Positions 51,128 through 63,260 are shown, numbered from the stretch's first letter. The stretch is DNA of 64,000 bases from Promethearchaeota archaeon (GCA_014728035.1 WJMJ01000148.1:85228-149227); one strand, 5' to 3'. Notes: generated by a model from the sequence alone, not told the origin. Translations and numbers: made by a program.

Positions 51128-54100
51128 ATGGGAAAGAGAGCTCTTGGAGATCGCAAAGCCGAAAATCTAATTGAGGTCGGTGTGGGATATTCCACGCTTA
51201 AAGATTCATATCAAGCAGGGTTAGCAGCTTCCAAAGATGCCTTATCTCAAATCATGGAGCACGAGGTTTCAGTTGTTATCCTGTTTACATCCTCACGATT
51301 CGACCTTGAAAAATTAGCTCAAGGAGTTAAAGAAGTAGCTGACGATGCTATTGTAATTGGTACCACTACAGCAGGTGAAATAGCAGACAGAAGATTAGAA
51401 AATTCAGTTGTGGTTGTAGTATTAGCATCTCCTTTTATCAGCGTTAATGTGGGAATTGGAACTAATGTTGCAAAAGATTGGAGAAGCGCAGTTGAAGATG
51501 TCATCAAATCATCAGATGTTGCCAAGTATTTTCAGAAAGACTATTCAATTTGGGCTAACTTGACTAGAAATGGGAAAAATGTATTTGGACTACTTTTTTC
51601 ACCTGGAGCTACTCTAAAGGCAGATTCCCAAAATTACCTCATTCTCCAAGAGTTGATTAGCAGATCTGAATCAAAGATACCTTTCTTCGGTGGAGCGTCA
51701 GCAGATGACTGGAAATTGGAAGAAAATCATGTAATCTTAAATGGGAAAGTATATCCGAATAGTATACTCTTGGCAGTATTTGAAACTAGCCTGTCATTTG
51801 GGATTGGAATGGCGCATGGTTACGAGGCTAGTGATGAAAAATTCAGGGTAACGAAAATAGAAGGACAAGAAATTCTTGAGATTGATAACAAACCCGCAGT
51901 TAAGGTGCTTTCTGAAATATTTGATTTTAAAATAGAAGAAATAGGAGGTATGCATTTAGGTTTCTTGACAACGGGAACCATCGGATACCAGAAAGATCAA
52001 GGTGACTATGTTCTCAATATCCCATCCAGAGTGACTAGTCGACAAGGAGTTATCTTGTCTCACGCTGTTCCACAAGGTATTGAATTAACCGTTATGAAAG
52101 CGACTAAGAAGCGTCTAGCTGAAGCTAGCAAAAATGCTCTTCGTCGCGCAAATCTGAGAGCGGGTATTTCAAAACCCGCTATATGTATTACATTTTCTTG
52201 TGCTCTTAGAGCTGCAATATTGGATGACGAAGCTGATAATGAGATACAATCCATGAAAGAAGCAGCACCGAAAACACCAATCGTAGGATTCTATTCTTTT
52301 GGAGAACAGACGATATCAAATGATGGAACCAACGAGCATTTCAACGAGATAATTTCGGTTCTTTCAATTGGAAACTCTCTTTCACCGAGTGCAGAAGTCG
52401 CATTAGAAAATAAACAACTATTAAGAGAATTAAAAATAACAGAAGAAGCACAAAGGGCTCTTCTGATTCAAATGCCTGATGCTGTAATTGCTACGGACGA
52501 GGATGGTGTCATTTCTCATTGGAATCCGAAAGCAGAAGAAATTCTTGGTTATAGTGAAGAATATTGTATTGGGAAAATACTTGAAGATGTTCTAAGTGAT
52601 AGTGCTCAGGAATTACTCAACCTGATAAAAACCGAGAATTGTGGGATTGGATATTCATCTGAGCTCTATATCCTAGCATCAAATGGCACAAAAATTCCTT
52701 TTCTCGTAACCGCATCACATAACAGAAATCAACCATATTTTACCGATGTTTATATTCTACATGACATTAGACACAGAATTGAAATGCGAAATGCGCTGCT
52801 TGATAGCGAAGAGAAGTATAGAAATCTAATTGAAAATTCACTTGAAGGTATTGCTATAGCTACTGATAATAAATTCCTCTTTGTTAACACAGCTTTTTCA
52901 AAACTGATGGGGCGATCAATAGATGAATTGCTATCTAAAAGAATGCCTGCTATTCTACATTTCATTCATCCAGAAGATGTAGAGAAATTGACAATCTTAA
53001 ACGATGTGTGGCAAAAAGAAAGAACTGTTCCGGATAGAGTAGAATTCAGAGTTATAACAGATACAGGAGAAACAAAATGGATTGAATGTTATCCTCAAAC
53101 GATAATGTACGATGATGTACCGGCAATTCAAATGCTCGCTCATGATATCACGATAAGAAAAAATGTGATGAATTCACTTGAGAAAGAAAGGACATTCTTT
53201 CAAACCCTAGCAGAAGTATCCGTCGAGGATGATGATATTCAAAGCATTTGCAGAAGGATACTTGAAACACTAATGAGAAACTATGATTTTCATTTAGGAG
53301 CTATTCAGCTATACGACGAGAAGAACAATTTGCTTGAGCTGGTGGCAGCTCAGGGAGTGAGTCCTTACAAAACATACAAACACATGAAAGTCGCTCCCAT
53401 TGAAGAAACGGGGTTCATTGCCTCCCATGTCGCATACTCGAAGGAACCCATTTACATCACAGATAGCATTCCGGAAGCTTGGCCAAAAATCGTTGAACAA
53501 CGTTTCAAAGAATTAAGAGTAAGAAGTTCTATGACCTATCCAATTTTGCGTTCCGATTCTTCGTTGATTGGTATTGTTAATTTTGCATCAAAAAAATCCT
53601 CATCATTTTCCAGTTATGACAAACAATTTTACCAAGCAGCAATTTCCATGCTCGGAACTGCAATAGAAAAAGCTGAAGCAAAACAAAAATTAGTTGAATC
53701 AAAAGAACTTTTTGAAAAGACATTCATATCACAGAGAGATTCGATATTAATCCTTTCGAAATCCAATCCACCAATTGTTGTCGACTGTAATCCGATGGCT
53801 AATGAAGTGTTTGGTTATCCAAGAAATGAGCTAATTGGGAGTGCAGTAGAAATTTTAGCTCCAGATGATTCTTCAGGAAATCGTCTGATCCATCAATTGA
53901 CTCATAATATTAAAAGACGAGGATTTATCCAAATTCCAGATTTTGTTTTGGAAAGCAAAACTGGAAAGAAATTGGATACTGAAATCACAGCGGTTCTACT
54001 TCAAAAAGATTCGGGAGGTGATATGGGATCAGTTGTAGTAATACGTGATATTACAAAAGAAAAGCAAGATGAACAAGCTCTAATAGAAAGTGAACAGCGA

Positions 54101-55075
54101 TACAAGACTGTACTTCAATCATTAAATGACCTTGTGTTTGTGTTTGACGAAGAAAACAGATATACACAGTTTTATTCAGCTAGCGGACATTTACTTGCTG
54201 TGTCTAAAGAAGAATTCATAGGAAAGCAAGTGGATGAAGTATTGGATAATGAATCGAGTAGAATATTGCTATCGACTCTTGACAGAGTTCGTGAAACAGG
54301 AGAAAATGGAAATATAGAATATGAATTGGAAATCAACGGGGAAGTGCGGTACTTCTCAGGTTCAGTGTCATTACAGGATGACGGAAAACACTGCACTTTG
54401 ATTGTCCGTGACGTGACCGAAAGGAAACTTGCTGAAAATGAGCTACTCACTTCATATCGGGATCTTGAATTATATACGTCTCTGTTACGTCATGACATAG
54501 CTAACGATTTGCAAATAATAATGGCACAATCTGGAATGCTCGAAAAAAACCTGGGAGATATCAATCGAGAACGAACAGAAGCAATTTTTGCTGCAGCAGA
54601 GAGAATGGGAAGAGTCTTGAGTGTTTTCGGAGCAAGCGAAAATGAACCTAAACAGACTCTATTAGCTATGATAGAAAAAATATCAGACCAAGCAAAACGT
54701 GCTCATCCTGGATTAATTGTTAATATCGAATGTACTAATCATGCCAAATCTATCAACCTAAGCATTGGAAGACTCATTCCTTTGGCTTTTGATAATCTTC
54801 TTAGAAATGCAGCTACATTTGCTGGAGAAAATCCAGTTGTTGATATCAAGATTAGGAAATCACAAAATACTATCATCATTGATTTCAAGGATAACGGAGA
54901 TGGGATTCCTACCCATATCCACGATAACCTATTTCAAAGGGGCACATCCACTACTGGTGGAGGATTAGGATTATACCTTACAAAAAGAGTCCTAGAAGGA
55001 CATGGAGCAAGTATTGAATTAATAAAAGACAAGCACAAAGGTACTCATTTTCGTGTGGTATTTCCAATCCAATAA
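51128..55075 (+). CDS. FIST-PAS-PAS-GAF-PAS-PAS histidine kinase
   Basis: GTTTAGEI, FFGGASAD, FSCALR, GFYSFGE (FIST); several PAS domains; LLRHDIAN H-box; DNGDG, GLGL. Confidence 0.9.
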   Translation: MGKRALGDRKAENLIEVGVGYSTLKDSYQAGLAASKDALSQIMEHEVSVVILFTSSRFDLEKLAQGVKEVADDAIVIGTTTAGEIADRRLENSVVVVVLASPFISVNVGIGTNVAKDWRSAVEDVIKSSDVAKYFQKDYSIWANLTRNGKNVFGLLFSPGATLKADSQNYLILQELISRSESKIPFFGGASADDWKLEENHVILNGKVYPNSILLAVFETSLSFGIGMAHGYEASDEKFRVTKIEGQEILEIDNKPAVKVLSEIFDFKIEEIGGMHLGFLTTGTIGYQKDQGDYVLNIPSRVTSRQGVILSHAVPQGIELTVMKATKKRLAEASKNALRRANLRAGISKPAICITFSCALRAAILDDEADNEIQSMKEAAPKTPIVGFYSFGEQTISNDGTNEHFNEIISVLSIGNSLSPSAEVALENKQLLRELKITEEAQRALLIQMPDAVIATDEDGVISHWNPKAEEILGYSEEYCIGKILEDVLSDSAQELLNLIKTENCGIGYSSELYILASNGTKIPFLVTASHNRNQPYFTDVYILHDIRHRIEMRNALLDSEEKYRNLIENSLEGIAIATDNKFLFVNTAFSKLMGRSIDELLSKRMPAILHFIHPEDVEKLTILNDVWQKERTVPDRVEFRVITDTGETKWIECYPQTIMYDDVPAIQMLAHDITIRKNVMNSLEKERTFFQTLAEVSVEDDDIQSICRRILETLMRNYDFHLGAIQLYDEKNNLLELVAAQGVSPYKTYKHMKVAPIEETGFIASHVAYSKEPIYITDSIPEAWPKIVEQRFKELRVRSSMTYPILRSDSSLIGIVNFASKKSSSFSSYDKQFYQAAISMLGTAIEKAEAKQKLVESKELFEKTFISQRDSILILSKSNPPIVVDCNPMANEVFGYPRNELIGSAVEILAPDDSSGNRLIHQLTHNIKRRGFIQIPDFVLESKTGKKLDTEITAVLLQKDSGGDMGSVVVIRDITKEKQDEQALIESEQRYKTVLQSLNDLVFVFDEENRYTQFYSASGHLLAVSKEEFIGKQVDEVLDNESSRILLSTLDRVRETGENGNIEYELEINGEVRYFSGSVSLQDDGKHCTLIVRDVTERKLAENELLTSYRDLELYTSLLRHDIANDLQIIMAQSGMLEKNLGDINRERTEAIFAAAERMGRVLSVFGASENEPKQTLLAMIEKISDQAKRAHPGLIVNIECTNHAKSINLSIGRLIPLAFDNLLRNAATFAGENPVVDIKIRKSQNTIIIDFKDNGDGIPTHIHDNLFQRGTSTTGGGLGLYLTKRVLEGHGASIELIKDKHKGTHFRVVFPIQ

Positions 55076-55152
55076 TTCCAATTTCTTGTCCTTTGTCAAC
55101 AGTCTTAAGCAATAACGATGTATTTGTGTTATTCATATTTAGAGGGATTGGA

Positions 55153-55629
55153 TTGAAAAAAGAAGATACGCTTGAATTCATTGATAAACAGATAGATCTA
55201 GAAGAAAACATAATTAATATCGTAAAGGAAAACACTTCCAAACTTGGAAATGCTTTCGTGAAAGATTTACTTCTAGGTATTGCGCAAGACTCGAAAAAAC
55301 ACGCGGCATTACTCAAGTCATTGAAGAAAGCAGTCGAAGGACCTACACCTTTCATCAGCACTGATGAACGAGACAAGATTGCCAAGGGAATCGAGAAACA
55401 TATCGAACTTGAATCACAAGCAATCGAGACCTACTCGGAACTTATTAAGAAGAGCGACAATGAGCAGGTTAAAACCATTGCTGCTATGATTCATGAAGAT
55501 GAGATTCGACACCATGCACTTTTGAAAGAATTGCACAAAACAATAATCGAGCCCGAAACTTTGACAGAAGACATGATTTGGGATATTTTGTGGAAAGACT
55601 CACCCTGGCATGGTAGTCCTGGCGGCTAA
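55153..55629 (+). CDS. Ferritin-like (rubrerythrin-type) di-iron protein
   Basis: Duplicated LE...DSKKH and LE...DEIRH; probable TTG start at 55153. Confidence 0.8.
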   Translation: MKKEDTLEFIDKQIDLEENIINIVKENTSKLGNAFVKDLLLGIAQDSKKHAALLKSLKKAVEGPTPFISTDERDKIAKGIEKHIELESQAIETYSELIKKSDNEQVKTIAAMIHEDEIRHHALLKELHKTIIEPETLTEDMIWDILWKDSPWHGSPGG

Positions 55630-55645
55630 TTCAAAACATGATAAC

Positions 55646-55680
55646 TGTGGGTTTTATCCCACACCAATTCTATTTTATTC
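55646..55680. terminator. Hairpin between convergent genes
   Basis: TGTGGG-ttttat-CCCACA. Confidence 0.5.
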
Positions 55681-56227
55681 CATACTCATCAACAAGATTC
55701 AGAAAGGTCGAGTCTAAGGTATCCATTCCTACTCCGGTTTTAGCGGAAATCAAATGGGTGGTCATTCCATATTCATTAGCAACTTCGATCATCTCATCAC
55801 CAATCTGGTCGATTTTATCTCCATCTATAAGATCAATTTTATTTCCTACCAAAATGAAGCGTTTTCCATCCCCACTATCGAAATTCAGATTGCTATTTTC
55901 ATTGACTGCTGGAATCCAATAAGTGAACAAATTATCAAATGTCTGCATTTTACTTACATCAAAGAAAAGGAGGCCAATTTTTGCACCACGTATCATTGTT
56001 TTCATCTGATCTGCAAATCGTTTTTGGCCACCAAAGTCCCATATTGATAGTGTGCATTCAGTACCACTGGGAAGCTCCACCTTCTTAGTATCAAAACTTG
56101 CACCGATTGTAGTGCGTAGCATATCTGGATCAGGAAAATTACCAGTTGTATAGCGTTGGGTAAAAGATGTCTTCCCGCACTCTGTATCACCCAACACTGC
56201 TACTTTTACAATCGCCATTTGATTCAA
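55670..56227 (-). CDS. Rab-like small GTPase
   Basis: GDTECGKT, TTIG, WDFGGQ, NKID, ISAKTG. Confidence 0.92.
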   Translation of the reverse strand: MNQMAIVKVAVLGDTECGKTSFTQRYTTGNFPDPDMLRTTIGASFDTKKVELPSGTECTLSIWDFGGQKRFADQMKTMIRGAKIGLLFFDVSKMQTFDNLFTYWIPAVNENSNLNFDSGDGKRFILVGNKIDLIDGDKIDQIGDEMIEVANEYGMTTHLISAKTGVGMDTLDSTFLNLVDEYGIK

Positions 56228-56230
56228 TCC

Positions 56231-57607
56231 TCACGAAGACTGTTGACTGGACGTTCCTCTTAGAGTAGATATAATTTTTGCAAATGGAGGGCTAACACCG
56301 ATTGCTGCCGCAGCTGCTACACCCAATAGGATTAACGCTAGTTCAAATTGAAAATCTTCTACGTACATTGCAGATAAAGCTGCTAATAGCGCAGAAATAA
56401 CAAAGAGAACAAATCTTGATGCTGCTCTTCCAGCTCCAATCTTATACAGTCTCCACGAAGTTCGAATGAAAAGAACTATAGACCATATCAAAAATGGACC
56501 TAGAAGAATCCAGAGATCTCCTGCAACCCATCTACCGTCTGCAACTTCAGGTATTGCTAGAATTGTTATGAATGTGCAAAATGAGATTATTATCTCCCTA
56601 GTAACTGAGTATCCCCTCTCACCAAGTGCAGTAGATGCTGCAGCTAAAGTGATTCCTGTTAGTCCGAAACAACCGAGAAGTACGTCAAACCAAATCATAT
56701 AGCGATTGAATACTTCATTTTGTGAGATATAGACAGCCCATGAAAGGGAATGAGTAAACAATAACAACGAAATGGAACCAAGAACAAGAGCAATATATTT
56801 TGGTACTCTTGCTTCAGTTCTAGTTAGTTCGCCGAGGAAAAAGTCCAATGGTGCTAAAATACACAATCCCGTTATGAGACATGCCAGTACAAAACTCCAG
56901 ATTACATAAGTTCCAAAACTCAGAGCAACTATAATCAATGGAATACATATTGTAAGTCCGGTTCCAAATAATAAAATGGTAATCATTGTTCTTGGGGGTT
57001 TCCTAATTGATCCAAATATTGCTGCTCCTACAATCAGCGGTGCGTTTACAAAGATGTAATATTCAGGATTACTCCAGACAAAACCTGTACTAGCAAGCCA
57101 CCATGTCATAATATACATCAACAGTAACAGAGTTAGTGAGCCGGTAAATATAGTGGGATTCTCTTTAAGCAGTGTCAGAGCAAAGAAGAATGTTGCAATT
57201 AAGAACAATGCGAGAATGGGAGCAAAAAGAATGAGAATGCTAGTACCAGTAAAAAGTCGTTGAATATTCTCAAAAATCACTGGAACGATCAGAAAAGCAG
57301 TTATGATAGTTCCATTTCTTGCACGATTGCCTTCTTGAAAGAGAATATTCATCTGAGCAATGAGAACAAATCCTAGGAATAACGCATTAAAACCAGTAAT
57401 GATGAAACGAAGTGGCTCCATCATTCCCGCAAGTACGGAGAGTGTCACAAATATTCCTGCGATTCCAAATGCGGTCAATGCTCTTTGTGTATAGATCGTA
57501 AGTGTACCGTAAATCTCTCTGATTCTTTTTACATATATCAAGAGAGAGAAAGAAATGATAATACTTACAACCAGTCCGCTAATATTCATAGCAAGTGTGT
57601 AATCCAT
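56231..57607 (-). CDS. About 15-TM membrane protein (copy B), putative double-7TM receptor
   Basis: 15 hydrophobic segments counted by eye; paralogue of 58291-59661. Confidence 0.75.
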   Translation of the reverse strand: MDYTLAMNISGLVVSIIISFSLLIYVKRIREIYGTLTIYTQRALTAFGIAGIFVTLSVLAGMMEPLRFIITGFNALFLGFVLIAQMNILFQEGNRARNGTIITAFLIVPVIFENIQRLFTGTSILILFAPILALFLIATFFFALTLLKENPTIFTGSLTLLLLMYIMTWWLASTGFVWSNPEYYIFVNAPLIVGAAIFGSIRKPPRTMITILLFGTGLTICIPLIIVALSFGTYVIWSFVLACLITGLCILAPLDFFLGELTRTEARVPKYIALVLGSISLLLFTHSLSWAVYISQNEVFNRYMIWFDVLLGCFGLTGITLAAASTALGERGYSVTREIIISFCTFITILAIPEVADGRWVAGDLWILLGPFLIWSIVLFIRTSWRLYKIGAGRAASRFVLFVISALLAALSAMYVEDFQFELALILLGVAAAAAIGVSPPFAKIISTLRGTSSQQSS

Positions 57608-57613
57608 TTTGTA

Positions 57614-57991
57614 TCAACCCCATAAATCAGATATTTCGCGTCCGCGTTTATCAGCGACTTTTTGAATTCGTTTTGCAATCTCTTCTTTCGATGCTTCCGG
57701 TTTATTTGTAATGGAGGTCAAACTGTCAGCCACTTCATTCTCATTATCAGCTTCAGCTATGTAGACATAATCCCCCAAGGTGACATATCCGACAACACCA
57801 CGATCCGATTTCATAAAATGGTGTTTACCTTCCGAAAGACTTGCTGGGTCATCACGTTCAAGAGCTGCAGAAACGAGCTGTACAATACCCATCAACAAAG
57901 CAACTCGTTCATCCTTTTGCTCATCAATGGGATATAATACTTGAGAGCTCATATCGTCCAATTTTACTTTTGCTACCAGTCTGATGACCAT
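57614..57991 (-). CDS. Longin-fold protein (copy B)
   Basis: Beta-beta-alpha-beta-beta-beta-alpha-alpha pattern; C-terminus KRGREISDLWG. Confidence 0.65.
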   Translation of the reverse strand: MVIRLVAKVKLDDMSSQVLYPIDEQKDERVALLMGIVQLVSAALERDDPASLSEGKHHFMKSDRGVVGYVTLGDYVYIAEADNENEVADSLTSITNKPEASKEEIAKRIQKVADKRGREISDLWG

Positions 57992-58284
57992 TAGTCACCA
58001 CCCCCAAAAGCATCAGTTAACCAATCAAGCTCTTTAGACCCAGTTCGCTTCTTGGGTTCTTCTTTCTTTTTCATTGGAACAACAACGTCTCGAACCCCGA
58101 GACCTTTACCTCCACGTTGGTTATAGAGGGTGACCAGCAGTTCATGCCCATTTTCGCAATTTGCTATCATAGTTGGTGAGCGACCCTCATCCTTAATTCT
58201 CTGTTTAATAGATTCAGCTTCTTCATCTGAAAGTTTGATGGTAGTCTGACCTTGACACTCTGGACATTTGAATGTGATATCCAT
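57991..58284 (-). CDS. Small zinc-binding protein (copy B)
   Basis: FKCPEC...CENGH; C-terminus ELDWLTDAFG. Confidence 0.75.
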   Translation of the reverse strand: MDITFKCPECQGQTTIKLSDEEAESIKQRIKDEGRSPTMIANCENGHELLVTLYNQRGGKGLGVRDVVVPMKKKEEPKKRTGSKELDWLTDAFGGGD

Positions 58285-58290
58285 GATTTA

Positions 58291-59661
58291 TCAGCTCCCT
58301 TCCTTTTGTGATGATGTGCGTCTTGAAATAAACCGAATAACGGGTGGACTATTTGCCAATGATAGAATGACTGAAAATGCTAATAGTGCTAAGACAATTC
58401 CAAATGGAAAATTATCTGAAAACATAGAAACAATTCCAACTGCCAATGCAGATGTTATGAATAAGATAAATCTGAAAGCAGCTGTACCTGCCCCAAGTCG
58501 TGCTATTCGAATGGATGTTCTGATGAATAACAACATTCCAGCAGCAATTCCGAATCCAATAAAGAGCCATAGTACTTCTTGTTCATAGCGACCACCAATT
58601 ACATCAGGAAATGCAAAACATACAATAGCAGATCCATATATGTTTAGGAATTCCCTTGAGTAGGAATATGCTGTATTTCCAAAGTTCATCACTACACCAG
58701 CAAGAACGAAAGCTCCAACTGCAAACATTCCCAACACTACATCAAACCACACAAAATATTGATTCCATGCACCTTCGGATTGGTAGATAGAAAATGATAA
58801 TGCGTGAGTCATAATCATTAGAGAAAGTGCGCCAATGACTAATGCAATATATCGAGGTGCTTTCGTTCCCGTTTCTTGTGCTTGCTGAATGAAATAGTTT
58901 AGAGGGATGATCATCGCTAAACCTGATAGTATTGCAGCTTGCGAATAGAGTGTAATGATGGTTTCACCGGACTGGAACGAAACTATGACTAGTGATGAAC
59001 CAATTGTGAATGCAGTGAGGATTAGAAAAATCGTTAACATTGTTCTAACTGGTTTTCTTATAGATGCAAATATTGAAGCTCCCAGCAACAATGGTAAAGC
59101 ATTGATTATGAAAAATTCGGGATTGACGAACAACCATCCAGATGCTGACACTAGCCATGCAACAACAAAGACCAATTCTAGAACTAGAAAAGAAACCGAG
59201 AATACTGTCGGATTTTCACGAACAAGTACAATCGAAGATATAATTCCCCCACCAAGGAAAAACAGTAAAGTCACCATTAGAATTCCAATTGTGGGAGGTA
59301 AAACAAACCTGAGGTAAGCACTGATAGCAACCGATGATGCCATTAGTAGTATAATGATAATTTTGAGATAATTAGCTAATTTCTTATTTGGATAAAGAAT
59401 ATTGATCTGAGTAAGAAATAGCAATCCAAGAAAGATGGCGCTATTACCCATTACCAGATGAGTCATCGTAGAGTGAACAGCAAAGAATGGTACAAAAGCC
59501 ATGGAGATTCCTGCAGCACCATATGTCATCAGAGCTCGACGTGTATTGGGAGTGATTTCTGTGATGATTTCTCTAATGTTTCTCCCGTAAATTACAATAG
59601 AAAACAATGTTGCCGCAAAGGTTACCAATCCTGAAATAAAGATAGTCTGTGAAAAATCCAT
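58291..59661 (-). CDS. About 15-TM membrane protein (copy A), putative double-7TM receptor
   Basis: Shares IREI, ENPT, NPE, SIRKPxRTM, YIALV, THxLS, WFDV, FIRTS, SPP with copy B. Confidence 0.75.
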   Translation of the reverse strand: MDFSQTIFISGLVTFAATLFSIVIYGRNIREIITEITPNTRRALMTYGAAGISMAFVPFFAVHSTMTHLVMGNSAIFLGLLFLTQINILYPNKKLANYLKIIIILLMASSVAISAYLRFVLPPTIGILMVTLLFFLGGGIISSIVLVRENPTVFSVSFLVLELVFVVAWLVSASGWLFVNPEFFIINALPLLLGASIFASIRKPVRTMLTIFLILTAFTIGSSLVIVSFQSGETIITLYSQAAILSGLAMIIPLNYFIQQAQETGTKAPRYIALVIGALSLMIMTHALSFSIYQSEGAWNQYFVWFDVVLGMFAVGAFVLAGVVMNFGNTAYSYSREFLNIYGSAIVCFAFPDVIGGRYEQEVLWLFIGFGIAAGMLLFIRTSIRIARLGAGTAAFRFILFITSALAVGIVSMFSDNFPFGIVLALLAFSVILSLANSPPVIRFISRRTSSQKEGS

Positions 59662-59671
59662 TATTACACCT

Positions 59672-60049
59672 CTAACCCCATAAATCTGAAATTTCCCTGC
59701 CTCTTTTGCTTGCTACTTTCTCGATTCGTGTTGTCAATTCTTCAGTAGAAGCATCTGGTTCTTTTGCTACAGAACGAACACATTCACCAGCTTCATTTTC
59801 ATTATCAGCTTCACAAATGAAAAGTGTACCACCAACCTGAGAATATGATATGACGCCTCGATCGCTTTTCATAAAATGTGGCTGATCTGAAGGTATCTCC
59901 TGAATATCATCTCTTTCAAGTGCTGCTGAAACCAATTGTACAATTCCAGTAAGAAGCGCAATACGTTCAGCTTTTTCTTCACCTACTGGATAAAGTACTG
60001 TCGAAGACATATCATCAAGAGCTACTTTTACAACTAAACGAATTACCAA
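59672..60049 (-). CDS. Longin-fold protein (copy A)
   Basis: Paralogue of 57614-57991; GAGGAGG RBS and TTG start. Confidence 0.65.
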   Translation of the reverse strand: MVIRLVVKVALDDMSSTVLYPVGEEKAERIALLTGIVQLVSAALERDDIQEIPSDQPHFMKSDRGVISYSQVGGTLFICEADNENEAGECVRSVAKEPDASTEELTTRIEKVASKRGREISDLWG

Positions 60050-60061
60050 GCTTTATCCTCC

Positions 60062-60346
60062 TCATCCAAAAGCGTCTGTGAGCCAGTCTAGCTCACTTGA
60101 ACCTGTTTTCGATTCCTTTTTCTTTTCTTTCTGCATTGGTACGACAACATCTCGTACCCCGAGACCTTTACCTCCACGTTGATTGTATAAGGTAACGAGT
60201 AATTCATGATTGTTCTCACACCTAACAATCATCGTGGGACTACGACCTTCTTTAGAGATTCTCTCCTTAACCTCAGCAGCCTCTTCATCGGTCATTTCTA
60301 TAAGAGCTGAACCGTCACAGGCTGGACATTTGAATACTAGTTTCAT
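60062..60346 (-). CDS. Small zinc-binding protein (copy A)
   Basis: FKCPAC...CENNH; paralogue of 57991-58284. Confidence 0.75.
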   Translation of the reverse strand: MKLVFKCPACDGSALIEMTDEEAAEVKERISKEGRSPTMIVRCENNHELLVTLYNQRGGKGLGVRDVVVPMQKEKKKESKTGSSELDWLTDAFG

Positions 60347-60736
60347 AGCTATCGTCCAGAACGTTCTCTTGGCCTACGAATTTGAATGAAAAACCCTTGA
60401 TATAGGTTATTAGGATTTATTCAAAATCTGAAGCTAGAAGACTCTCACGAATTCGCTATTTCGATTTCTCAATCTCAGTAAATCTTCTTCGCATACAATC
60501 TCGAATAAACTCAGGAAAAGAAGAATAGCCAAGTTCGTAGTCTCTATTGAATCGTTCGAATTTTATTCTGTAGTCATCAGGTAACGTTACAGTAGTCTGT
60601 CGTCCCAAAACAATCACTTCAGAGTTTTAACAGCTATCATGTCTAAAATAGACTGATTGTCAGAGGTCAAAGCTTATGTTCAAGGTTGCATATTGTAATA
60701 CATTCTATATTGAAAACGCTTGGAGAATTGTTTATT

Positions 60737-62635
60737 GTGACAGTAGAGGATGTGAAAAGAACAGATGACGGTCCAGCTCTTATGCTTGCGAATGAAGCGG
60801 TCGTAAGAGGTGCGCTTGAAGCTGATGTAAAGGTTGTTGCTTTTTATCCAGGGTCACCTACCTCAGAGATCCTAGACACATTTGGAGAGGTCTTGGACCA
60901 TTTTGGTGATTATCGGATGGAGATATCTGCTAATGAAAAGGTTGCTCTTGAGACCGCAGCTGGTGCGTCAATGGCAGGGCAACGTTCCTTTGTAAGTATG
61001 AAAAGTGTTGGAATGAACGTAGCCAGTGACTCGATGTTCAGCATAGGATATACAGGTCTCAATGCAGGGTGTGTCTGTCTGATTGCAGATGACCCCTATG
61101 CCCATTCATCACAGTCTGAGCAAGATGGACGATATTTTGGAGAAGCAGCATATGTTCCCATGATAGAACCCGCCACAGCTCAAGAAGCTAAAGATATGAC
61201 AAAATGGGCCTTTGAGGTCTCAGAACGCCACAAAACTTTGGTCATTATGAGAACTACGACTAGAGTCAATCATCAGAGAGGAATGGTTAACCTCGGAAAA
61301 CTGGATCGAACTCCATTCAAGAAAAACAAATGGGCAGACGTGAAAGGCGAATACTTCACAGTTGGAGCAATCGCCCGAGCTCTAAAAGCGAAGATACTAG
61401 AACGAACTAAGAAGGTTCGTAAAGAATTTGAAAAGACCAAATTCAATTTCATTGATGAAGGTGAAGGAGACACAGGGATAATCACTGCAGGTGTCTGTTA
61501 TTTACATTCCAAAGAAGCAATGAATAATCTAAACATGGAACTGCCTGTGCTAAAGATAGGAACTCTGTTTCCACTACCAGAACAGAAAATTGGCGAGTTC
61601 ATCAAACCACTGAAACGATTGATCATCGTAGAAGAATTAACTCCATATCTTGAGACCCGGATTACTGCTCTAGCTAAAGATATCAATCCTGACTTGGAGA
61701 TAATCGGAAAACGAAGCGGTCACTTCAGTGAGATGCTTGAATATAACGTACCAATTGTCGAGAAAGTGTTAGCATCTGTTTTTGAAACGAAACCAAGTCT
61801 CGACTACGATGCAATACTCGAAAGAGCAGAGAAGTTAAAGGCGGACCTTCCAGAACGAAGCCCAATATTCTGTCCTGGGTGTCCACATCGGGGTACACTT
61901 TGGGCATTTAGAGAGGCTTTACGGAAACTAAAGATTCGTGATGATATCGTGTATAACAACGACATAGGGTGTTACTCGATGGCTTTTCTCCCTCCCAATA
62001 ATTTTAGCGACTCAATGCTGGCAATGGGAGCTTCGTTAGGGGTCTCAGCTGGAATGGCACTCTCGTTAGAAGACAAAGTTATAGCTATGGTAGGTGATTC
62101 AACACTATATCATGCAGCGCTTCCCGGGATTGTAAATTTGATTCACCATAATGCAAACGTAACATTGTTTGTCTTAGATAACTCCGTGACTGCAATGACT
62201 GGACAGCAGTTTAACCCGAATAGCCCATATGATGCTGGGAGGTCTCCAGCAAGAAAGATAGACATGGAGAAACTCTTCGAGGGGCTCGGTGCTGACAAAA
62301 TCACAGTCATCGATCCATATCAGACGAGGGACTCTGTTAAGCCAATTATGGAAGCAATAGAAGCAGAAGGTCTCTCAGTAATCATTGCTAGAAGAGATTG
62401 TGCGCTCTATGGAGACCGTGAAAAGAAAAGAGCTGGAGAAAAAATCATTCCGAGTGAGAACGACAAGGAAACCTGCAGAGGTATCTATGCATGTGTTAAG
62501 GAATTCTATTGTCCAGCTATTGTTGTTGATGAATCAGACCATAAGATGATGATAGTACAAGACTTGTGCGATGGTTGTCTTGAATGTCGTCAAGTCTGTC
62601 CCGTGGATGCTCCATATCACGTAGGAGGTGCATAG
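60737..62635 (+). CDS. iorA: Indolepyruvate:ferredoxin oxidoreductase alpha subunit
   Basis: ANEAVVRGA, YPGSPTSE, NEKVALE, FCPGCPHR, DIGCY, GDST..H, LDN..TAMTG, C-terminal ferredoxin; probable GTG start at 60737. Confidence 0.93.
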   Translation: MTVEDVKRTDDGPALMLANEAVVRGALEADVKVVAFYPGSPTSEILDTFGEVLDHFGDYRMEISANEKVALETAAGASMAGQRSFVSMKSVGMNVASDSMFSIGYTGLNAGCVCLIADDPYAHSSQSEQDGRYFGEAAYVPMIEPATAQEAKDMTKWAFEVSERHKTLVIMRTTTRVNHQRGMVNLGKLDRTPFKKNKWADVKGEYFTVGAIARALKAKILERTKKVRKEFEKTKFNFIDEGEGDTGIITAGVCYLHSKEAMNNLNMELPVLKIGTLFPLPEQKIGEFIKPLKRLIIVEELTPYLETRITALAKDINPDLEIIGKRSGHFSEMLEYNVPIVEKVLASVFETKPSLDYDAILERAEKLKADLPERSPIFCPGCPHRGTLWAFREALRKLKIRDDIVYNNDIGCYSMAFLPPNNFSDSMLAMGASLGVSAGMALSLEDKVIAMVGDSTLYHAALPGIVNLIHHNANVTLFVLDNSVTAMTGQQFNPNSPYDAGRSPARKIDMEKLFEGLGADKITVIDPYQTRDSVKPIMEAIEAEGLSVIIARRDCALYGDREKKRAGEKIIPSENDKETCRGIYACVKEFYCPAIVVDESDHKMMIVQDLCDGCLECRQVCPVDAPYHVGGA

Positions 62636-63260
62636 AATGGAAGGCACATACAATATCATGTTCTGTGGAGTCGGAGGGCAAGGCCTCATGTTGTTATCAT
62701 CCATCTTAGGAAAAGCAGCGACTGATTCAGGTATCAAGGTCATGACTGGAGAACAACACGGTCTCTCTCAACGTCAAGGTTCTATCTATGTCCATTTCAG
62801 AATGGGAAATCCGATATCTCCGCTAATTCCCTATGGTAAAGCAGATCTAATGATAGCTATGGAAGCTAGTGAAGCTCTGAGATACATCGAGTATCTGAAA
62901 GATGATGGGATAATTATCATGAGTAACCGAGTGATGCCAAGTGTGGCTGAAACTAGAGAAGTTGCTCTTGACAAAGATGAAAAGACAAAATACTACACAA
63001 TAGAAGAGATTGAGGAAAAGCTCAGGCAGGTCACAGACAAGATAATCCTGTTGGATTCACTTGAACTTGCGACAAAAGCAGGTAATCCAAAAACTGAGAA
63101 TTCTGTATTAATCGGTGCTGTTACTGCCTGTGACGATTTCCCGATTCCAGCAGATGAAGTAAAAGAGTCAGTTCTTGAATTAGTTCCACCTAAGACCGTG
63201 AAAGCGAATACAAAAGCTTTCGAACTTGGTCAAGAAGCAGGTGGAGACTGCCTTGGTTAG
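62628..63260 (+). CDS. iorB: Indolepyruvate:ferredoxin oxidoreductase beta subunit
   Basis: CGVGGQG, HGLSQRQGS, EALRY, NTKAFELG. Confidence 0.92.
   Translation: MHRMEGTYNIMFCGVGGQGLMLLSSILGKAATDSGIKVMTGEQHGLSQRQGSIYVHFRMGNPISPLIPYGKADLMIAMEASEALRYIEYLKDDGIIIMSNRVMPSVAETREVALDKDEKTKYYTIEEIEEKLRQVTDKIILLDSLELATKAGNPKTENSVLIGAVTACDDFPIPADEVKESVLELVPPKTVKANTKAFELGQEAGGDCLG

Follow-up and report, generated by a model that had tools for sequence, protein, structure and literature searches.

On the minus strand of a 64,000-nucleotide stretch of DNA from a Promethearchaeota archaeon (GCA_014728035.1, WJMJ01000148.1:85228-149227; this whole stretch is referred to below as the window), positions 55670-60346 hold seven co-oriented, tightly packed open reading frames (ORFs). 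They are laid out as two copies of a triplet, which encodes a Brz-type zinc-ribbon protein (ZnF), a 125-amino-acid (aa) protein with a predicted longin fold and a membrane protein of 15 transmembrane (TM) helices, followed by a single gene for a Rab-like GTPase. Going by the names that its homologues carry, the host genome is a metagenome-assembled genome of Thorarchaeota, 4.33 Mb in 173 contigs, with 98% completeness and 8.5% contamination. The module to which these genes belong is real and conserved, and apparently it is undescribed in the literature. We consider it reasonably probable that it is a conserved, lineage-specific archaeal switch composed of a membrane protein, a longin and a GTPase, with a core of four genes, in which a longin dimer is predicted to clamp the switch regions of the GTPase.

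A duplicated triplet and one GTPase gene

The genes of the operon and their neighbors are listed in Table 1. In gene order, the intergenic gaps are 12, 10, 6, −1, 6 and 12 nt, the negative value being the overlap of ZnF-B with longin-B. A sequence-only reading of the window had described seven co-oriented genes separated by no more than about 12 nt, with one TAATG overlap; it had taken the block of three genes as a diverged tandem duplication with both copies intact, and had assigned to both copies one shared GTPase that has the motifs G1 to G5 and no lipid anchor. The ORF list, the sequence and the alignment of orthologues agree with this description throughout. The same reading had treated the three genes as the unit of the system, and here only the duplication stands: the basic unit has four genes. 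From sequence comparison, the triplet is best seen as a diverged tandem duplication, a lineage-specific local elaboration found here and in one close relative.

Table 1. Genes of the operon, in gene order, and flanking genes in the window
Feature	Product	Position	Strand	Remarks
ZnF-A	94-aa zinc-ribbon protein, CPxC...CxxxH	60346..60062	-	basic linker, conserved C-terminal DWxxxAFG
longin-A	125-aa stand-alone protein with predicted longin fold	60049..59672	-	AlphaFold2 (AF2) model, structural matches
TM-A	456-aa membrane protein, 15 TM	59661..58291	-	modeled as two bundles of seven TM helices (7TM), linker helix, cytoplasmic C-terminal helix
ZnF-B	97-aa paralogue of ZnF-A	58284..57991	-	69% identical to ZnF-A; stop overlaps longin-B start (TAATG)
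longin-B	125-aa paralogue of longin-A	57991..57614	-	64% identical to longin-A
TM-B	458-aa paralogue of TM-A	57607..56231	-	36% identical to TM-A over full length
GTPase	Rab-like GTPase, 182 aa from ATG 56218	56218..55670	-	ORF opens at TTG 56227; G1-G5 intact
Upstream ORF	53-aa ORF	60456-60617	-	109 nt upstream of ZnF-A; no Pfam match
Sensor	1315-aa FIST-PAS-GAF-PAS histidine-kinase-type sensor	51128-55075	+	converges on GTPase end of operon
Rubrerythrin	rubrerythrin/ferritin-like protein	55093-55629	+	converges on GTPase end of operon
Oxidoreductase pair	2-oxoacid:ferredoxin oxidoreductase gene pair	60686-63260	+	divergent from operon

The history of the triplet was examined in a maximum-likelihood tree of 32 TM proteins, with support from the Shimodaira-Hasegawa-like approximate likelihood ratio test (SH-aLRT). 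TM-A and TM-B share one clade (SH-aLRT 95). Its other members come from three further genomes, two of which contribute a single unit and one a TM pair, and the 'second' TM genes, which eight other genomes carry, form a clade apart. This separation points to a lineage-specific duplication of the triplet. The simplest reading is that the whole triplet was duplicated and that the TM genes have since evolved faster than their soluble partners. Another origin, a young ZnF-longin copy inserted between two old TM paralogues, had been prompted by the identity of the ZnF and longin copies (64-69%) against that of the TM proteins (36%); it was rejected, as TM-A and TM-B fall together in the clade just described. 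A scan for promoters and terminators of bacterial type, which is ill-suited to an archaeal host, gave counts near the shuffled expectation.

The four proteins, their modeled folds and a predicted longin-GTPase complex

The longin reaches the cut-off of no Pfam family and has no NCBIfam family. Its AF2 model, built from 46 homologues, has a predicted local distance difference test score (pLDDT) of 83.3 and a predicted template modeling score (pTM) of 0.76. The model consists of strands at residues 3-10, 15-20, 58-62, 65-72 and 75-81 and helices at 27-46, 84-95 and 102-124, so that the order is β-β-α-β-β-β-α-α, which is the longin order, with no helix before β1. Helix α1 holds a dense run of invariant positions. 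In an exhaustive VIA-align structure search, all of the top 50 rows were members of the longin/roadblock superfamily. The best match was the longin of DENND1A (Z 10.3, root-mean-square deviation 3.3 Å, 112 residues aligned, covering model residues 1-123), and other full-length matches were the longins of CPLANE (Z 9.6, 3.3 Å, 113), TRAPP (8.7, 3.0 Å, 110) and Mon1-Ccz1 (8.6, 3.1 Å, 111), with further matches to BLOC-3, VAMP7 and Sec22 (Z 8.2 each) and to a Lokiarchaeota longin (Z 8.0). Coverage of the whole model is confined to longins, most of them from guanine nucleotide exchange factors (GEFs) of Rabs; roadblock structures cover only residues 1-100. The roadblock family Robl_LC7 was matched by 1 of the 46 members, at E 0.08, and the N-terminal helix before the first strand is not present. 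Searched with a profile, the PDB sequences gave no longin and no sequence relative, and a search for fused forms of the longin among longer proteins found none, which is weak evidence. On the strength of the AF2 model and the 50 of 50 structural matches, the 125-aa protein is a longin fold that lies outside the known longin sequence families, as the sequence-only reading, which had made its proposal depend on this fold, had expected.

The GTPase matches the Pfam families Ras (2e-27; 96 bits against a cut-off of 21.6) and Roc (3.4e-21). It has the motifs G1 GxxxxGKT, the switch-I Thr, G3 DFGGQ with the catalytic Gln, G4 NKID and G5 SAK, and it carries an FPDP motif before switch I; in the family alignment, GxxxxGKT, the switch-I T, WDFGGQ, NKxD and SAK are conserved in the 18 orthologues. 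None of these 18 has a Cys in the C-terminal tail (prenylation motif), so the GTPase would need a protein partner to reach the membrane. Judging by the orthologue alignment, ATG 56218 is the likelier start compared with the upstream TTG. The top PDB sequence matches are all Rabs, namely Ypt7 (4e-20), Rab28, the Thorarchaeota Rab 7ezb, Ypt51 (Rab5), Rab12 and Rab27. The host genome has 36 Ras-family matches. The cognate GTPases of the module are 51-66% identical to one another, against 24-30% for other Ras-family genes in the same loci, and the protein is probably a diverged Rab-like GTPase that is dedicated to the module.

An interaction between longin and GTPase had been proposed from the sequence, and it is predicted well above controls. 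The complex prediction was made for two longin chains and the GTPase, with three controls and with our own alignments, and it scored 0.85 against 0.26 for the best control. Of 80 solved complexes, 58 attain this mark, as do 2 of 110 mismatched pairs, a calibration that is approximate for a prediction with own alignments and three chains. Contacts agree between the runs to at least 93%, with a partner pLDDT of 88 or more. The predicted interface joins longin residues 11-16 and 25-46 to GTPase residues 1-5, 27-46, 55-58 and 68-80; in structural terms, the β1-β2 loop and helix α1 of both longins face strand 1, switch I (27-46), the interswitch (55-58) and switch II (68-80). This geometry is that of MglB-MglA and of longin GEFs with Rabs. 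Since the longin and the ZnF have no sequence relatives in the PDB, the prediction would not be the memory of a solved sequence relative. The models thus have a longin dimer clamping the switch regions of the GTPase. The β1-β2 loop is identical in longin-A and longin-B and helix α1 differs at a few positions only, so either copy could serve the single GTPase. Units usually have a single longin gene, and for this reason the homodimer is taken as the default regulator, the A/B heterodimer being a putative lineage-specific option.

A longin paired with a Rab-like GTPase may also be read as a primitive system of Rab/GEF type, in which the two proteins mark or shape a region of membrane, the TM protein is an anchor or cargo and the ZnF is a structural adaptor. 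The closest solved relatives of the GTPase are indeed Rabs (Ypt7, Rab28, Rab5/Ypt51), the best full-length matches of the longin are the Rab-GEF longins (DENND1A, CPLANE, TRAPP, Mon1-Ccz1, BLOC-3), and PF19031 (Intu_longin_1, the first longin domain of INTU, CCZ1 and HPS4) is weakly matched by 6 of the 46 longin members (best E 0.013). We nevertheless regard a role in membrane identity or remodeling as unlikely, as none of the loci examined links the operon to a coat, tether, SNARE or ESCRT gene, the module is confined to about half of one archaeal family, and the TM partner has a sensor-like 7TM shape, 7TM modules being found at the head of bacterial and archaeal sensors (7TMR-DISM, HisKA_7TM).

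That shape comes from the AF2 model of TM-A (pLDDT 89.7, pTM 0.87). The hydropathy scan gives 15 TM segments, in agreement with the sequence-only reading, and the model refines their form to two bundles resembling 7TM receptors, joined by a linker helix. Across the TM alignment, the mean number of Lys and Arg residues is 19.9 in odd loops and 2.4 in even loops, which places the N-terminus outside and the C-terminus inside. In order along the chain, the model has a 7TM bundle, the linker helix, a second 7TM bundle oriented like the first, and a short helix in the cytoplasm. Residues 1-207 match folds resembling G-protein-coupled receptors (GPCRs) with Z up to 14.0 (4.0 Å, 201 aligned), and residues 232-455 match ADGRL3 with Z 14.3 (5.8 Å, 221 aligned). 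The top 50 VIA rows of both halves are seven-helix receptor folds (GPCRs of classes A, B, C and F, adhesion and taste receptors, microbial rhodopsins and designed GPCR-like proteins), with one row for the 7TM solute-transporter subunit OST-alpha. Neighbors of the TM protein in the ESM Atlas are modules of 7TMR-DISM, HisKA_7TM, rhodopsin (bacteriorhodopsin) and class C GPCRs. The TM proteins have no family in Pfam (30 members searched) or NCBIfam, and a word-based homologue search with TM-A returned only TM-A itself and one relative. Among the positions conserved at 80% or more, 14 of 29 lie in cytoplasmic loops and none is a Lys; with no conserved Lys, the TM protein would not be a retinal protein.

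Transport offers a further explanation of the membrane component. The 15-TM proteins would then be transporters or solute-binding transceptors, and the longin and GTPase would report or control their activity in nutrient uptake or sensing. Eukaryotic parallels exist in SLC38A9 or LYCHOS, which work with Rag GTPases and Ragulator/GATOR1. The weak Foldseek rows of the TM protein include LYCHOS/GPR155 and MFS (major facilitator superfamily)/POT transporters (E 0.04-0.15, TM-score 0.17-0.27), and many genomes have tandem pairs of TM paralogues, as would be expected of a heteromeric membrane complex. Longin/roadblock proteins are also known to act with Rag GTPases at nutrient transceptors (PMC10933270). 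It is improbable, in our view, that the module regulates transport: the top 50 VIA rows hold 7TM receptor or rhodopsin folds and OST-alpha but no fold of MFS or POT type, the transporter and LYCHOS rows are weak (TM-score at most 0.27), and no transporter family of Pfam is matched among the 30 TM members.

The zinc-ribbon proteins have a single family link, which is to the Brz zinc ribbon (Zn_ribbon_Brz, PF23454), the family of a transcription regulator. ZnF-B is over the cut-off of 27.9 bits (30.1 bits, E 7.4e-7) and ZnF-A is under it (20.2 bits, E 9.5e-4), while the Pfam family is matched by all 20 members of the ZnF family (best E 6.3e-7). NCBIfam gives the ZnF only a sub-threshold Brz match, and a profile search of PDB sequences with the ZnF found nothing relevant. 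The invariant positions are C7, P8, C10, C43, H47, W88, F93 and G94, of which C7, C10, C43 and H47 are the zinc ligands (CPxC, CxxxH). A GRSPT loop, an RD pair and a C-terminal DWxxxAFG behind a variable basic linker are also invariant.

Brz itself is a small zinc-finger regulator of Halobacterium, whose gene immediately precedes the 7TM gene bop (PMC2253796). A corresponding scheme for the module is a transcription switch tethered to the membrane, in which a Brz-like ZnF is held at the membrane complex and is released or activated when the GTPase changes its state. The Brz matches of all 20 members, with ZnF-B over the curated cut-off, and the similar gene context of Brz and bop speak for it. 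Beyond the ribbon the ZnF has no recognizable DNA-binding domain, and protein-protein contacts seem a better explanation of its conserved DWxxxAFG peptide and of its translational coupling with the longin; we therefore give this scheme a very low probability. The switch of membrane protein, longin and GTPase, which is the reading we prefer, would accommodate the ZnF as an adaptor as well as an output.

Conservation, range and genomic surroundings

The gene arrangement is not due to chance. Every one of the 18 units examined has the order ZnF, longin, one or two TM genes and GTPase; they come from 16 genomes of one Thorarchaeota family and comprise those of the host genome, with a third copy counted, and the loci of 15 further genomes. 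The TM gene is single in nine of the 18 units and a tandem pair in the other nine, and in two genomes two whole units stand in tandem. A related metagenomic contig (L047) has the identical seven-gene layout and the same flanking genes, and its TM-A orthologue is 76% identical. The third copy in the host genome is a plain four-gene unit on another contig (L007:5940-8574, C25:333939-336573); its ZnF has 93 aa, its longin 124 aa, its TM protein 472 aa and its GTPase 181 aa, and the TM protein is of a subclade that differs from that of the copies in the window. On the opposite strand, 1.3 kb upstream of this third copy, is the gene of an unrelated GTPase of Rab-like type (193 aa, 30% identical). 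In one genome the ZnF gene is preceded by an additional TM paralogue (L037:4292-5653), besides the TM gene in the usual place. In some genomes (for example G027, G037, G069, G055 and G016) the matches to the second TM gene contain one in-frame stop, which may be a read-through of a gene boundary or a sign of a decaying paralogue.

The order is also kept at a greater distance. A diverged metagenomic contig (L042:5311-7906) carries a 96-aa ZnF (33% identical), a 129-aa longin-like protein (20%), a TM protein and a Ras-family GTPase (43%), and another (L044:2425-5841) has a gene of ZnF size, one of 128 aa and a pair of TM genes, and breaks off short of the GTPase position. As the four proteins remain together while diverged to 20-43% identity, they are functionally linked. 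Synteny of the GTPase with the module in other genomes, a check that followed from the sequence-only reading, was thus found in all 18 units and in L042 and L047. The longin-like protein of L042 has no match in 400 Asgard genomes. The phosphoenolpyruvate carboxykinase (PEPCK) gene beside this unit is 78-83% identical to the PEPCK of a different Asgard family, and the TM protein of L042 has no match in five representative genomes of that family.

The range of the module is narrow. Of 43 genomes of the own family, 24 match the longin profile, and none of 157 other Asgard genomes does. From 1.84 billion protein representatives, the TM profile recovers only 67 proteins, all of the TM family, the most distant being those of L042 and L044. 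A locus in the sister family (G112, L046:5350-8571) encodes a 457-aa TM protein that weakly matches the TM profile (hhalign 74%) and a convergent GTPase that is 40% identical and has an FPNP motif; the 138-aa protein next to the TM gene has no detectable similarity to the longin profile. It is possible only that this locus is a rearranged remote variant. Upstream of it are two membrane proteins with double Cys motifs resembling zinc ribbons or B-boxes.

With regard to the surroundings of the operon in the window, the sensor and the rubrerythrin/ferritin-like gene flank the operon in L047 as well, and not in the other genomes examined. The oxidoreductase pair is also kept in L047, where the orthologues have thiamine pyrophosphate (TPP)-enzyme and POR domains; it is read as the indolepyruvate type. 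The 53-aa ORF has an N-terminal pattern that is faintly like that of ribbon-helix-helix proteins, and no gene was called at the matching place in L047.

A proposed switch and its relation to known systems

Based on the gene order, the folds and the predicted complex, we propose the following mechanism. A longin dimer (A/A, B/B or A/B) would use helix α1 and the β1-β2 loop to clamp the GTPase at switch I, the interswitch and switch II, and would thereby set its nucleotide state. Via its conserved cytoplasmic loops, the double-7TM protein may serve as the site at the membrane and possibly also deliver the input signal. The ZnF, which is translationally coupled to the longin, would be an adaptor or an output, possibly a transcriptional one as in Brz. 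We infer the role of the TM protein, which may be that of a sensor or else that of a scaffold or transporter. In a further step, the double-7TM protein would be a true receptor of a ligand or stimulus, whose state is passed through the longin and ZnF to the Ras-superfamily GTPase; this we regard as a tentative proposal, more doubtful than not.

Several results weigh against the proposed switch. No match at E≤0.001 was found with Foldseek against the PDB for either the longin or the TM-A model; the weak rows for the longin (E about 2e-3) are all roadblock or longin. For helical bundles, Z values of 13-14 are borderline and may mean merely a common arrangement of helices. None of the 7TM families of Pfam is matched among the 30 TM members, and the N- and C-terminal halves of the TM protein have no detectable similarity to each other (hhalign probability 3.7%), which leaves an internal duplication of the protein without sequence support. 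As the complexes of MglA-MglB, Mon1-Ccz1-Ypt7, TRAPP-Ypt1 and DENND1-Rab35 have been solved, the passing score of the predicted complex may partly reflect likeness to them and not the binding of this pair. No catalytic residue was identified in the longin, and so both a GEF and a GTPase-activating protein (GAP) are allowed; we lean slightly to GEF, with GAP equally allowed by the data. Finally, the TM profile is patchy: of the 85 genomes of the own family 40 have a match, the single genome of the sister family has one weak match, and 313 genomes of other Asgard families have none. A range so narrow and patchy speaks for an invention of this lineage and not for an ancestor of a eukaryotic pathway.

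The module is of interest since the pairing of regulators and GTPases in Asgard archaea is mostly obscure, despite the dozens of small GTPases and the longin/roadblock proteins of these organisms. In MK-D1, GTPase genes are generally outside operons with roadblock or longin genes (PMC10933270, Tran et al.), so that partners cannot be read from the genome; longin homologues were listed in that study for Loki and Odin. Here, in Thorarchaeota, the GTPase-longin pair is operonic. The operon provides a matched set of a GTPase with its own longin, zinc ribbon and membrane partner, which is conserved in the family and has a confident predicted interface, and for that reason experiments on binding, nucleotide exchange and structure could begin with it directly. 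For three of the four proteins there is neither a curated family nor a characterized function. If the 7TM-shaped protein is the input, the module would be a prokaryotic pathway from receptor to small GTPase made of eukaryote-like parts. If it is a true receptor, the closest relatives of eukaryotes would have a self-contained archaeal pathway from receptor to G protein, in which a longin would be the exchange factor, a role that the GPCR itself has toward Gα.

The sequence-only reading did not recognize the system as described, and our searches of full-text literature on Asgard 7TM proteins, longins, GTPases and gene neighborhoods likewise found no description of the module. The preprint of Liu et al. 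reports an operon of LAMTOR1-like, Rab-like and DENN proteins, and NPRL2-like longins, which is a different set (10.1101/2020.10.19.343400). A structural-clustering preprint of 2026 includes Asgard 7TM proteins with a class C GPCR-like cluster, and the accessible part of its text makes no link to a GTPase operon.

The individual components can each be compared with known proteins. In MglA-MglB and in Asgard roadblock/Rab pairs, a dimer of the roadblock/longin superfamily contacts the switch regions of the GTPase (PMC10933270; PDB 6izw, 6h5b, 7f8m, 7ezb), in a geometry that is predicted here; compared with a roadblock of MglB type, the longin of the module lacks the N-terminal helix and has two C-terminal helices. 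The eukaryotic longin Rab GEFs (DENND1, Mon1-Ccz1, TRAPP core, CPLANE, BLOC-3) are the best full-length matches (Z 8.2-10.3, 110-113 aligned, 3.0-3.3 Å), and in them too a longin pair faces a Rab-like GTPase, as it does in the predicted complex. However, they have no significant sequence similarity to the 125-aa protein, which is a single domain whereas they are multi-domain subunits, and GEF activity in the module is putative. With 7TM receptors (GPCRs, microbial rhodopsins, 7TMR-DISM, HisKA_7TM), the modeled TM protein shares the seven-helix bundle with N-terminus outside and C-terminus inside and the short cytoplasmic helix after the last TM helix, and its gene is genetically linked to a GTPase. 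It differs from them in having two bundles per chain with a linker helix, and in that the GTPase is small and Rab-like, not a heterotrimeric Gα. The ZnF resembles Brz of Halobacterium salinarum as a small archaeal zinc ribbon of the form CPxC...C/H in PF23454, encoded directly upstream of, and co-oriented with, a 7TM gene (PMC2253796). In contrast to Brz, it adds the basic linker and the invariant DWxxxAFG tail and is coupled to a longin and a GTPase, and a role in transcription is putative; the likeness of gene context to Brz-bop may be a coincidence.

As a whole, the module is most readily compared with the actinobacterial conservons (CvnA-D) and the Mfp operon, in which, again, four genes of one operon encode a membrane protein of sensor type, a member of the roadblock superfamily, a small accessory protein and a GTPase of the Ras superfamily (PMC4316618, PMC13343842, PMC13621833, PMC11343762). 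They too occur in several copies per genome, and their GTPase, which has no lipid anchor, is thought to act in a membrane-associated complex. The parts are different: the TM protein is a double 7TM without a kinase domain whereas CvnA is histidine-kinase-like, the longin topology stands in place of the roadblock CvnB, a Brz-type zinc ribbon in place of the DUF742 protein CvnC, and a Rab-like GTPase in place of the MglA-type CvnD, and the host is an Asgard archaeon. None of the seven operon proteins matches HATPase, Robl_LC7 or DUF742. As no component is orthologous, the operon is an analogue of the conservons in its logic and not one of them, and the module is a new take on a known theme, in which a membrane sensor is combined with a roadblock-superfamily regulator and a small GTPase.

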